Below are positions 21,807 to 26,187 of a DNA stretch of 64,000 bases, piece after piece. The stretch covers positions 14,497 to 78,496 of the forward strand of contig JAYPWI010000013.1 of NCBI GenBank assembly GCA_038135065.1, in the 5' to 3' direction. The notes under the pieces were generated by a model. The model made no database searches and was not told the origin of the DNA. It was given only the letters and a program-made list of their open reading frames with translations. Numbering within the stretch: the first letter of the stretch is position 1; every line of letters starts with the position of its first letter. The stretch comes from Acidimicrobiales bacterium (GTDB lineage: Bacteria > Actinomycetota > Acidimicrobiia > Acidimicrobiales > Poriferisodalaceae). Made by a program: the position numbers and the translations under genes.

Positions 21807-22724
21807 TCAGATGATGGCCAAGCCGTGGATGGTCGGCACGGTTTCCCGTACGGCGGCCCGAATGAGTTCCCGTCCTGCGGTTGCGGCGGCCGACAGCATC
21901 CCTCGGCGGCGCATGACGAGCCCCACGGTGCGGCGCGGCATCTCGGGGAGGGTCAGGACGTTCCAGTCGCCTCGGGCTGCCCATGCCGGGATGGCCGTGA
22001 CGGGAACGATGGCCGGACCGTAGCCCTGGAATGCGAGCGTTGCGGTGAGACGGATGCCGTCGAGTTCGGCCAGGCTGCGCAATCGCACGCGGTGCTGCCC
22101 GGCAGCGTCGTCGATGTGATCGCGGAGGTTCGACCCGACCGGTCCGAGGAGGAGCCGATGTGGCTCGAGGTCGGCGAAGCTCACCGAGCGGTCGCCACCG
22201 GCGGCCAATGGATGATGGCCAGGGGTCACCACGACGAGATCTTCAGCGAAGAGGGGGCTGGTCACCATCTCCTCGTGCTGTTGCGGGATATTGATGACGG
22301 CGAGGTCCAACTCGCCGCTTTCGAGCAAGGGGATCAGGGCGCTGGTGGTGGAGTCGACGACCCTGGCCTCGACATCAGGATGGGATTTCCCGAGCTCGTC
22401 GAGCCACGGTGGTAGCAGCCATCGTCCGGTGGTTCCGATCACACCCAGCCGCACGGTGCCCGTGACATGGGAGGTCATGGAGGCAACGTCCGCTTTCAAC
22501 GCCGCCAGTTCGGCGTTCACCCGTCGTGACCTGGCCAGGACCACTTCGCCTTCCGGGGTGAGGCGGCCTGCGCTGCGATCCACCAGGATCGCCCCCAACT
22601 CCTCCTCGAGGCGGGCGACGTGGGTGGAGATGTTGGACTGGACCGTATGGAGGGCACGTGCCGCAGCCGAGAAGCGACCATGTTCTGCTACCGCGGTGAG
22701 GGCCTCGAGTTGACGGAGATCCAT
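21807..22724 (-). CDS. LysR-family transcriptional regulator
   Basis: MDLRQLEALTAVAEHGRFSAAARALHTVQSNISTHVARLEEELG is the wHTH region. It is 305 aa and contains no cysteine. Confidence 0.9.
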   Translation of the reverse strand: MDLRQLEALTAVAEHGRFSAAARALHTVQSNISTHVARLEEELGAILVDRSAGRLTPEGEVVLARSRRVNAELAALKADVASMTSHVTGTVRLGVIGTTGRWLLPPWLDELGKSHPDVEARVVDSTTSALIPLLESGELDLAVINIPQQHEEMVTSPLFAEDLVVVTPGHHPLAAGGDRSVSFADLEPHRLLLGPVGSNLRDHIDDAAGQHRVRLRSLAELDGIRLTATLAFQGYGPAIVPVTAIPAWAARGDWNVLTLPEMPRRTVGLVMRRRGMLSAAATAGRELIRAAVRETVPTIHGLAII

Positions 22725-22753
22725 GCACTCATCCTAGGACGCCAGCCCCTGAT

Positions 22754-22768
22754 ATCTAAAAAAGTGAT
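22754..22768. promoter_or_regulatory. LTTR-box-like dyad ATC-N9-GAT (T-N11-A) in the LysR divergent promoter region
   Basis: The sequence is gATATCtaaaaaagtGATgg, 30-45 nt upstream of the LysR start codon, in a locally AT-rich stretch. Confidence 0.4.
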
Positions 22769-22825
22769 GGTAAGTATCTCTGGTGACTACTTGAACGATG
22801 ACCTCAGGGTAAGTAAGGTTGCACA

Positions 22826-23012
22826 TGTCGAGATCAACGACTTCCCCCGAGTCGCTCGGCACAACAACACCGCACCAAGGTGTCCCCCCACCGAGCGGTG
22901 ACAACCGCCGAGACGGAATCCCCCTTCCGATCGGCAGAGGTCGCAAGCGTCCCCCCGCTTAGCGAGACCTCCGAAACCGGCCCTTCCCCCAGGGCCGGTT
23001 TCCTCTTTTTCT
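22826..23012 (+). ncRNA. 6C-like small RNA with four UCCCCC-loop hairpins plus an intrinsic terminator (5' end uncertain, 22784-22838)
   Basis: Hairpins by eye: 22838-22854 CGACU[UCCCCCG]AGUCG; 22873-22900 CACC/GGUG[UCCCCC]CACC/GGUG; 22908-22934 CCGA..CGGAA[UCCCCC]UUCCG..UCGG; 22938-22970 AGGUC..AAGCG[UCCCCC]CGCUU..GACCU. The terminator at 22973-23002 is GAAACCGGCCC[UUCCCCCA]GGGCCGGUUUC, followed by CUCUUUUUCUC. A promoter-like TTGAAC-17nt-TAAGGT lies at 22791-22819. There is no credible ORF. Confidence 0.6.
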
Positions 23013-23028
23013 CCCGGTCACCAGCCGA

Positions 23029-23058
23029 CCCTGCCCCGACCGGGTGGCCGGGGCAGGG
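23029..23058 (-). terminator. GC-rich hairpin downstream of the aconitase stop (no U-tail)
   Basis: CCCTGCCCCG-N10-CGGGGCAGGG lies 12 nt after the stop at 23070-23072 on the minus strand. The adjacent sRNA terminator hairpin could act bidirectionally. Confidence 0.4.
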
Positions 23059-23069
23059 AAAGCACTCGG

Positions 23070-25313
23070 TCAGAGCGACGCCTTGATGATGTTCAGCGCA
23101 CTTCCGGCCTTGAACCACTCGATCGTCCATGAGGTGCCGCCCGGGGGCGAGACCTCGACGGTCACCGTCTGGTCGGGTGCCAGGTCGCTCAGGCCGCGCA
23201 CCGCGATGCGGTCGTCCTCGCTGATGCGGTCGTAGTCCGCTGGGTCAGCGAAGGTCAGGGGCAACATGCCCTGCTTTTTGAGGTTCGTCTCGTGAATCCG
23301 GGCAAAGGACCGAGCGATGGCAACCAGACCGCCCCGGAAGCGGGGCTCCATCGCAGCGTGTTCCCGGCTCGAGCCCTCGCCCATGTTCTCGTCACCAATG
23401 ACCACCCAGCCCTGGCCGACCTCGTGATAGTGCTTTGCGATGTCCGGGAAGCTCTGGACCTCGCCACTCAACTGGTTCTTGCCGTGGCCAGCCTCGTACG
23501 CCGATCCATCGGCCGTCTGATAGGCGTTGATGGCGCCGAGATAGAGGTTCCCCGAGATGTTCTCGAGGTGGCCTCGGTAGCGCAGCCAGGGGCCAGCCAT
23601 CGAGATGTGGTCGGTGGTGAACTTTCCGGCCGCCTTGACCAGGATGGGCAGACCCTCGTAATCGTTGCCGTCCCAGGCGGGGAAGGCGTCGAGAAGTTGG
23701 AGGCGATCCGAGGTGGGGGACACGGCTACGGTCACCGCGGACGGGTCTGCAGGTGGGGCGATGAACCCGCTCTCACCGGGCGTGAAGCCGGCCGGCGGCA
23801 GCTCGACACCCACGGGTACCGACAGCCGTACCTCGTCGCCCGCTTCGTTGGTGAGGGTGTCGGTAGCGGGGTCGAAGTCGACGGATCCTGCCAGGGCCAG
23901 GGCCATCACGGTCTCGGGAGAGGTGACGAAGGCCAGGGTTGCCGCATCGCCGTCGTTCCGCTTGGGGAAGTTCCGGTTGTAGGAGGTCACGATGACGTTG
24001 GGTTCGCCGGCCGAGTGCTCGGTCTCGGCCGAACGGTCCCACTGCCCAATGCACGGCCCGCAGGCGTTGGCCAGCACAGTGGCGCCAAGCGCCTCGAAGT
24101 CGGCCAGCAGGCCGTCGCGTTCGATCGTGGCACGGACCTGCTCGGAACCTGGGGTGATCATCAGCTTGGACCGCACCGTGAGGCCCTTGGCCGCAGCTTC
24201 CCGGGCGATGGATGCAGCCCGGGTGATGTCCTCGTAAGAGCTGTTCGTGCAACTACCGATGAGGGCGGCGCTGATCTCGAGCGGCCAGCCGTTGGCCCGC
24301 GCTTCGGCTCCCAACGCGCCGACTTCCCTTGCCAGATCTGGGGTGTGGGGCCCGTTGATGTGCGGGCCGAGCGTCGAGAGATCGATCTCGATCACCTGGT
24401 CGTAGAGGGCATCGGGGTCGGGTCGCAGGTGCTCTGCCACAGCAGCAGCCGCTGCTGCAACGTCGGCTCGACCGGTCGACACCAGGTAGCGGCCCACGGC
24501 GTCGTCGTAACCGAAGAGCGACGTCGTGGGGCCGATCTCGGCGCCCATGTTGCAGATGGTGGCCTTGCCGGTGCAGCTGAGTGACTCGGCACCGGGGCCG
24601 AAGTACTCAACGATGGCTCCCGTACCCCCCTTGACGGTGAGGATCTCGGCAACCTTGAGGATGACGTCCTTCGGCGCGCTCCAGCCGGACAGTTCGCCGG
24701 TGAGATGCACCCCGATGGCCTTGGGCCAGCGCACGTTCCACGGGAAGCCCGTCATGACGTCGACTGCATCCGCGCCGCCGACCCCAACGGCCAGCATCCC
24801 GATACCGCCGGCGTTGGGGGTGTGGCTGTCGGTGCCGATCATCATGCCGCCCGGGAAGGCGTACTGCTCGAGCACGACCTGGTGGATGATGCCGCTGCCC
24901 GGCTTCCAGAAGCCAGCCCCGTACTTGGCGCATACCGACTCGAGGAAGGCGTAGACCTCCTCGTTGGTTTCGTTGGCGGCCAACAGGTCTCGGCGACCGT
25001 CGTCCCGTGCCTGGATCAGGTGGTCGCAATGGGTGGTGGTGGGGACTGCCACCTCATCGAGCCCGGCGGTCATGAACTGCAGCCAGGCCATCTGCGCCGT
25101 GGCGTCCTGCATGGCAACCCGGTCGGGCCGCAGATCGACGTAGCTCTCGCCGCGCTCGAGTTCTTGGTCGCGCGACGCAAGGTGGTTGATCAGGATCTTT
25201 TCGGCAAGGGTCAACGGGCGCCCCAACGTCTGCCGCCCCCAGGCAACCGCATCGGCCAGGTTGCCGTAAACGGCGTCGATGAGTTCGATCGGGGTGTTGG
25301 CATACACGGCCAT
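23070..25313 (-). CDS. acn: aconitate hydratase, mitochondrial (ACO2)-like ~750-aa type
   Basis: From ATG 25313: [13 protein letters not shown]... Also [80 protein letters not shown] and [11 protein letters not shown]. This is near-colinear with eukaryotic mitochondrial aconitase as I remember it. Confidence 0.93.
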
Positions 25314-25407: not shown

Positions 25408-26187
25408 TTGGCAGACAACTACGGTACAAGTATTCGACCCGTCCGTACCATCCGCTATCGACAGATCGCCGACGATCTGGTGGCGCGCCTCGACCAAGGT
25501 GAGTTCGCGGCGGGCGGCCTGCTTCCCAGCGAAGCGATCCTCTCGGCTCATTACCAAGCCAGCCGGGTCACCGTTCGGAAGGCCTTGGAGGTCCTGCGGG
25601 TGGCCGGCCGGGTGGATTCCCGGCAGGGCTATGGCTGGTTCGTGGCAGCCGATCCACTCCAGCAGTCCTTGACCCGCCTGGGCACCTTGGACGAGCAGTT
25701 GGCGGCCGAGGGGGCGGTGTCGAGCAGAGAGGTCCTCGGCTTCGCCTTCGTGGAACCACCAGCGTGGGTCCGCGCGCGGTTCGGCGATGCGCTGGCCCCG
25801 GGTGAACAGGTGCTGGAGGTGTCACGGCGCAACCTGGCCGACGGACAACCGTTCGCCCGGGTGACTGTCTGGTGTCCGGGATCGCTCGCCGCCGACCTGT
25901 CGCGATCAGACGTCGAGCGCGCCCCGTTCGCTCGACTTCTCGGCCTGTCGCTGGGAGGGGCTCGCCAGACCATCGGGGCCGACGCGGTCAGCCGGCCCGA
26001 TGCCGCCGTGCTGGGAATTCCCGAGGGATCCCCGGTGCTGCGGGCCGAGCGGGTCACCCGCACGACCTCCGGCGTCGTGGTGTTGGTCTCGGAACACGTC
26101 TACCCGGCCCATCGAACCGAGTTCGTGGTCGACCTGCCAGCCGAGGCGGCTGACGGTGCGCCCGCAGGTCTGCGCCTCGTCAACTGA
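25408..26187 (+). CDS. GntR-family (HutC/UTRA-type) transcriptional regulator
   Basis: [49 protein letters not shown] is the wHTH region, with a UTRA-like C-terminal half. The TTG start comes from the ORF track. It is divergent from the aconitase gene. Confidence 0.85.

Follow-up and report, generated by a model that had tools for sequence, protein, structure and literature searches.

6C-type RNAs are among the most widespread small RNAs (sRNAs) of actinobacteria, and the signals that switch them on are poorly understood. A 6C RNA (RF01066; B11 in Mycobacterium tuberculosis, cgb_03605 in Corynebacterium glutamicum) is ~80 nt long and consists of two hairpins, each with at least six conserved C residues in its loop (PMC5014011). 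In M. tuberculosis, the panD and dnaB mRNAs are paired at their G-rich ribosome-binding sites by these C-rich loops, and no chaperone is needed (PMC6486639). The 6C promoter of C. glutamicum is bound by LexA, RamA, and GlxR. In the literature consulted, no link between a LysR-type regulator and 6C was found. LysR-type regulators with a divergent sRNA gene are represented by oxyR/oxyS and gcvA/gcvB (Escherichia coli) and vtlR/abcR (Rhizobiales). RNAs with at least three C-rich-loop hairpins and G-rich mRNA targets are sX13 of Xanthomonas (RF02232), RsaE/RoxS of Firmicutes, and the ar14 'cuckoo' RNA of alphaproteobacteria; to our knowledge, none of them is paired with a LysR gene.

The locus described here lies in a 64,000-nt stretch of DNA (the window) from a member of Actinomycetota (Acidimicrobiales, Poriferisodalaceae), the phylum that also hosts 6C. 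We consider that positions 22826-23012 of the plus strand probably encode a stand-alone non-coding sRNA of ~187 nt, which is activated by a LysR-type regulator and acts in trans via C-loop pairing. Like 6C, it is an actinobacterial stand-alone sRNA with consecutive hairpins, C runs in the loops, and U residues after the last hairpin. Unlike 6C, it has five hairpins in place of two and ~187 nt in place of ~80 nt, the C runs in its loops are 5, 6, 5, 6, and 5 nt long from hairpin 1 to the terminator, and a dedicated divergent LysR gene and box belong to it. As in oxyR/oxyS, gcvA/gcvB, and vtlR/abcR, the genes are arranged back to back with a T-N11-A box in the shared control region, and the sRNA would be the immediate output of the regulator. 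The phylum is different, however, and the RNA is unrelated to those sRNAs and Hfq-independent in design. New here are the five-hairpin form, hairpins that are gained and lost as modules, second sRNA genes that each carry a box, a fixed box geometry, a HAD-IB link to canonical 6C, and a second LysR-type operator in the source genus.

At the Rfam gathering scores, no family matched the sRNA, and the only match in the window was a tRNA elsewhere. The first-pass annotation had called the RNA 6C-type. The likeness of design stands, while the Rfam 6C model reached only 26.8 bits (E = 0.16 in a 501-nt search) against a gathering score of 47, aligning end to end over hairpin 4 and the terminator. Other sub-threshold matches were those of sX13 (22 bits over 22894-23007) and Rhizobiales-2 (27 bits); the scores of sX13 and ar14 are far below their gathering scores, and their lineages are unrelated. 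On eleven related loci, Rfam returned nothing at E ≤ 0.01. The 6C model exceeded its cut-off in 0 of 41 family genomes, in a pipeline where the C. glutamicum control also stayed below it; in the source genome, its best match was an isolated terminator whose loop is C7. In other Acidimicrobiia MAGs, an RNA with exactly two hairpins and C7-C8 loops, which is the 6C architecture, lies divergent from LysR orthologues of 45-49% identity. This two-hairpin relative was not matched by the 6C model either, and ar14 scored 15.9 bits on a relative. In the reciprocal test, covariance model R1, built from 12 BLAST homologues of the intergenic gap that holds the sRNA, scored true 6C loci at only 9-11 bits. 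Since the 6C model stays far below its threshold here and R1 is weak on 6C loci, homology is neither proven nor excluded, and common descent is unproven.

The RNA thus described belongs to an Acidimicrobiales-wide C-loop RNA family outside the current Rfam families. The regulatory RNA family of a whole order goes undetected by current models, and a new covariance model would help the annotation of environmental genomes; the practical impact is moderate because the organisms are uncultured.

Structure of the intergenic RNA

The gap between the start of the LysR gene and the stop codon of the aconitase gene, both on the minus strand, spans 22725-23069 and is 345 nt long, the length given in the first-pass annotation. 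As that annotation had described, the plus strand contains four hairpins followed by an intrinsic terminator (22827-23012 by folding and terminator scan). UCCCCC is found in every loop, that of the terminator included. Hairpin 1 (H1, 22827-22860) consists of the outer helix GUCGAG/CUCGGC and the inner helix CGACUU/GAGUCG (inner stem 22838-22854) with the loop CCCCC. Hairpin 2 (H2, 22868-22900), also found in a hairpin census, consists of the outer helix CACCGC/GCGGUG and the inner helix GGUG/CACC with the loop UCCCCC. The outer helices of H1 and H2 were missing from the earlier list of stems, in which all four hairpins were otherwise correctly located. Hairpin 3 (H3, 22907-22935) is formed by GCCGA/UCGGC and CGGAA/UUCCG, and hairpin 4 (H4, 22937-22971) by GAGGUCGC.../...GCGAGACCUC with the inner helix AGCG/CGCU, both around a UCCCCC loop.

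The terminator (22973-23012) was also rightly recognized together with its U run; its stem (22973-23002), however, has 12 pairs, eight of them G-C, and a 6-nt UCCCCC loop, not 11 pairs and an 8-nt loop. The stem is followed by CTCTTTTTCT up to 23012, with the tail CUCUUUUUCU, so that a GC-rich stem precedes a U run as in a Rho-independent terminator.

Folding of the region, which had been named as a check, yielded -83.8 kcal/mol for the plus strand (z = -8.11), and 0 of 200 shuffles were as good. The minus strand folded with z = -3.80 relative to its shuffles. The hairpin census of the 3.6-Mb genome, covering both strands, detected 2654 hairpins with a C5 loop. The sRNA locus is the sole cluster of five such hairpins in the genome, and the runner-up is composed of four weak ones. 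An N run between long poly-G and poly-C tracts at G000:C10:76562-76715 probably reflects an artefact of assembly; it gave rise to spurious clusters in the hairpin census.

Conservation and hairpin number in the Acidimicrobiales

When the gap was used as a BLAST query, 12 of 24 genomes from the same GTDB family yielded homologues. With R1, one copy was found in 64 of the 79 family genomes, representing 11 of 17 genera, and the sRNA is single-copy in the source genome, which rules out a dispersed repeat. In the genera missed by R1, C-loop hairpins are still observed at the same place, directly upstream of LysR.

Covariation among homologues, proposed along with folding as a check of the hairpins, was detected. 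In the 29-sequence R1 model alignment, 92.9% of cells pair. Changes on both sides were observed for 16 of 34 pairs, compared with 6.4 in shuffles (0 of 500 reach 16) and at most 6 with slid 3' partners, in an alignment that is fitted to the R1 model and therefore favours the structure, and among related genomes that are not independent samples. Compensatory changes occur in 7 of the 13 pairs of H1 (95% of cells paired), and two pairs covary in the outer helix of H2 (96%). The terminator is the most conserved part of the RNA, with 99% of cells paired and five covarying pairs. Since MAFFT placed the long and short forms out of register at H3 and H4, a separate alignment of 10 long-form sequences was used for these hairpins. 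In it, H3 shows four compensatory pairs with 93% of cells paired, the outer helix of H4 is conserved with no informative variation and no covariation, and the inner helices of H2 and H4 are partly out of register. Among the family homologues, the loops are nearly constant and UCCCCC-like, and the stems drift. With high confidence, the locus contains a real, conserved, structured RNA gene.

The number of hairpins varies among genera. The five-hairpin form is present in the source genus, g10, and g16 (where the H4 loop is not C-rich), a four-hairpin form without H4 in g3, g6, g7, and g8, and a four-hairpin form without H2 in g15. The relatives carry two to five C-loops per RNA, and those in the rest of the order two or three, in agreement with the earlier view of this locus as an expanded variant. 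C-loop hairpins upstream of LysR are concentrated on the sRNA strand, with 179 against 17 on the opposite strand at 49 loci, and with 80 against 12 at 29 loci from other families of the order. Judged by these sequence comparisons, the copy in the source genome is an enlarged member of an Acidimicrobiales-wide LysR-sRNA module, the simplest forms of which have two C-loop hairpins. The two-, three-, four-, and five-loop relatives, together with the tandem genes described below, provide a natural series for asking whether the number of C-loops sets regulatory strength.

The divergent LysR gene and the predicted promoter and operator

The gene at 21807-22724 on the minus strand encodes a LysR-type transcriptional regulator of 305 aa with the Pfam domains HTH_1 and LysR_substrate. 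All named NCBIfam models of LysR-type transcriptional regulators (LTTRs) scored below cut-off, the best being CynR with 131 bits against 277. Its best solved relative is C. glutamicum OxyR (E = 1e-27). However, the protein contains no cysteine in its 305 residues and lacks the redox-sensing cysteine pair of OxyR. Since it is cysteine-free, its signal is not thiol oxidation, and unlike OxyR it is not a thiol peroxide sensor. The analogy to oxyR/oxyS drawn in the first-pass annotation is thus valid for the gene arrangement but not for the signal.

The LysR orthologue is present as a single copy in 75 of the 79 family genomes. Outside the family, it was found in 46 of 48 genomes sampled from the rest of the order, compared with just 2 of ~150 genomes from other orders of the class. 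The RNA and LysR genes are divergent and adjacent, as at LTTR-activated divergent promoters, and this back-to-back arrangement, noted before in the window, was observed in 59 of the 64 genomes with an R1 match, at distances of 81-98 nt (95 nt here). The remaining five consist of three contig breaks and two genomes in which R1 matched a second sRNA copy. A 6C-like RNA with a dedicated, order-wide LysR-type regulator and operator offers a testable input, the LysR effector. More distant LysR homologues (38-41% identity; L068 1927-2274 on the minus strand, and L072) are divergent from a WhiB-family gene (PF02467), whose 5' leader at these loci contains one hairpin with a GUCCCCCCAC loop.

LysR-type regulators use two sites, one near -65 for recognition and one near -35 for activation. 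At this locus, the predicted promoter at 22791-22819 (+) consists of the -35 hexamer TTGAAC (22791-22796), a 17-nt spacer, and the -10 hexamer TAAGGT (22814-22819), and the distance to the -10 hexamer predicts a transcription start at 22826 (±2 nt). The putative LTTR recognition box ATCTAAAAAAGTGAT, an ATC-N9-GAT motif containing T-N11-A, is located at 22754-22768 (+) and centred at about -65 from the predicted start. Both promoter and box are present as the first-pass annotation had placed them. Between the box and the -35 hexamer lies the element AAGTATCT (22772-22779, +), which reads A(A/G)(G/C)TATC across genera and families, and a GAT follows directly after the hexamer (22797-22799, +). 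This element and the GAT are a candidate activation-site half. A putative recognition site near -65 is thus accompanied by a second candidate site at -35.

A strict E. coli-type sigma-70 scan called no promoter at the sRNA locus, and the promoter assignment rests on the conservation of TTGNNN-17-TANNNT, which occupies the corresponding position in 32 of the 40 family loci scanned. The ATC-N9-GAT box is present in 77 of 78 LysR-upstream regions across the order Acidimicrobiales, and the lone exception contains Ns. Wherever a -35/-10 pair was matched, the distance from the start of the box to the -35 hexamer is 36-37 nt (37 nt here). The box and the lysR start codon overlap at about two dozen loci, and this position fits autorepression.

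Six genomes from four genera possess a second sRNA gene, in tandem in g9 (L180, L182), g11 (L174, L175), and g17 (L171), and inverted in g14 (L181). Every second sRNA gene has its own box, followed by 22 nt, a -35 hexamer, 17 nt, and TANNNT, and ends in its own terminator; with the two genes, the loci of g9 and g17 reach seven or eight C-loop hairpins. The box is duplicated with each extra sRNA gene although no LysR gene adjoins these copies, and this is the strongest argument that it acts on the promoter of the sRNA rather than on lysR alone.

The composite operator recurs outside the window at G000:C14:49954-50000 (L193 2455-2500), before a phaE-like gene. This second copy reads ATCTCTACAATAGAT-GGT-AAATATCT-N10-TTCAACGAT, and its spacing is identical to that at the sRNA. 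Genes for a PhaC-like alpha/beta hydrolase and a patatin come next in this operon, which is divergent from a MarR gene. The box is kept before the orthologous phaE-like gene in a congener (L224), though the surrounding sequence has diverged. LysR probably has at least one further target in the source genus, and its regulon may include PHA synthesis. The sRNA had been proposed as the only plausible divergent target of LysR; its divergent position is as described, but the operator before the phaE-like operon makes a further target probable.

Proposed function and competing readings

We infer from these features that the sRNA is transcribed, depends on LysR, and binds G-rich RNA. LysR would bind to the ATC-N9-GAT box near -65 and to the element abutting the -35 hexamer, repressing its own gene, and would activate the sRNA upon sensing an effector, presumably a small molecule. 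The sRNA would act in trans on several mRNAs, in which G-rich stretches, typically Shine-Dalgarno regions of the GGGGG type, would pair with its C-rich loops. Such pairing would block translation without a chaperone, as for mycobacterial 6C, and five loops per molecule would provide more binding sites. By this analogy, pairing of the C-loops with G-rich ribosome-binding sites is likely.

G5-type ribosome-binding sites seem common in the source organism. A census of the source genome detected ~218 plausible genes whose start codon is preceded by GGGGG at a distance of 3-12 nt, frequently in the form AGGGGGA. This number makes a broad regulator possible, and since it is too large to name a specific target, the census was not discriminating as a target prediction. 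The aconitase gene has an ordinary GAGGA ribosome-binding site. Pairing of H2 with the aconitase 5' region was considered and rejected, as the 8-nt match is within chance by our own estimate.

A more far-reaching version of the model is rather doubtful. In it, the LysR-sRNA pair would be an ancestral, regulator-linked form of 6C with modular hairpins tuned by selection (2-5 per RNA, 7-8 per locus), acting as a stoichiometric sink, gated by LysR, that takes up G-rich ribosome-binding sites or a C-loop-binding protein. If true, global translation would be coupled to central carbon and storage metabolism; the connection to carbon is drawn because the same operator lies before the phaE-like PHA-synthase operon and because aconitase and HAD-PlsC genes are neighbours.

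With the gene and its LysR control unchanged, the repeated C-loops could also serve as a decoy that sequesters a poly(C)-binding protein or soaks up G-rich RNAs in bulk, as CsrB/RsmZ present many GGA loops to CsrA. The loop number is a variable trait (two to five per RNA, and more at the loci with a second sRNA gene), and the loops are nearly identical on drifting stems, a pattern that fits selection on the number of binding sites. On the other hand, no C-loop-binding regulator was found near the locus, and we know of none in Actinomycetota. In addition, the closest studied C-rich-loop RNAs pair directly with mRNAs, as reported for 6C (PMC6486639) and sX13 (PMC3771888). The decoy is the main competing mode of action, but we consider it unlikely.

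It is very improbable that the RNA works in cis, as leader or attenuator of a gene downstream, instead of as a trans-acting sRNA. A co-directional HAD-IB(-PlsC) gene, which such a leader could control, starts ~35-70 nt past the sRNA terminator at 21 of the 35 loci that stem from the order's other families, and a HAD-IB gene is likewise downstream of the sRNA in the family genera g4, g13, and g16. In the window, however, the next gene is the convergent aconitase gene, which leaves nothing downstream to control, and the same is true of most family genera. Furthermore, the strong 12-bp terminator with its U run is the part of the RNA that is conserved most, and the second sRNA copies also terminate on their own.

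For the trans-acting sRNA that we prefer, the HAD-IB gene is also a point of comparison with 6C. A HAD-IB (PF12710) gene is divergent from 6C at a distance of ~100-250 nt in 7 of 7 canonical loci (L183-L189, from two other actinobacterial families); this adjacency is a criterion set here on those seven loci and is not a published one. The Acidimicrobiales HAD-IB domain, which adjoins the RNA in many relatives, is fused to a PlsC-type acyltransferase and is 37% identical to the Streptomyces-type protein (E = 5e-38). In contrast to its orientation at 6C, it is co-directional with the Acidimicrobiales RNA, and it is not adjacent to the sRNA in the window, the best HAD match of the source genome being 10 kb away inside a fusion gene. 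The shared neighbour is suggestive, and only suggestive, of 6C and the Acidimicrobiales RNA being positional homologues. The conserved pairing of HAD-IB with 6C may itself be useful for defining 6C orthologues.

The convergent gene at 23070-25313 (-) encodes a mitochondrial-type aconitase (TIGR01340, 1034.6 bits against a cut-off of 825) of ~750 aa, not the long AcnA type. Its start is likely the ATG at 25313 behind GAGGA, not the TTG at 25418 of the open reading frame list. Since the gap directly follows the aconitase stop codon, the minus strand also beats its shuffles, and the terminator could work in both directions, the hairpins might be regarded as only the 3' UTR or terminator zone of aconitase, or as chance GC hairpins. 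This is exceedingly unlikely. Aconitase is the convergent neighbour in most family genera but not in g4, g13, g16, or most other families, and the element stays with LysR where aconitase is absent. The promoter, U tail, and C-loops are all specific to the plus strand, and the element occurs once in the source genome. A 10-bp GC hairpin just past the aconitase stop codon (23029-23058, -) is not conserved with the sRNA in relatives and probably forms the 3' end of the aconitase transcript itself rather than a part of the sRNA. The first-pass annotation had accepted that evidence for an aconitase 3' UTR would overturn its reading; the persistence of the RNA without an aconitase neighbour and the strand specificity of its conserved features rule out an aconitase 3' UTR.

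The chance that the region encodes a small protein is negligible: a 47-aa TTG ORF (22819-22962) and a 68-aa GTG ORF (22880-23086) exist on the plus strand, but no frame is conserved, five homologues have no ORF of at least 15 codons, indels remove whole hairpins, and stem substitutions are compensatory, all in keeping with the earlier statement that the gap has no credible ORF.

C-loop RNAs were also observed at other places. Outside the window, a candidate sRNA at G000:C70:4386-4478 (-) (L194) is built of three hairpins whose loops are of the UCCCCC type, and the third hairpin is an 11-bp terminator with a U run. It scores only 13.5 bits with R1 and is divergent from an SRPBCC/polyketide-cyclase-like gene, not from LysR. 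In a different family of the order, a U-tailed RNA of two hairpins, both with UUCCCCC loops (L055, ~1500-1640, +), directly follows groEL, whose product is recognizable by a Cpn60 C-terminus with a GGM tail.
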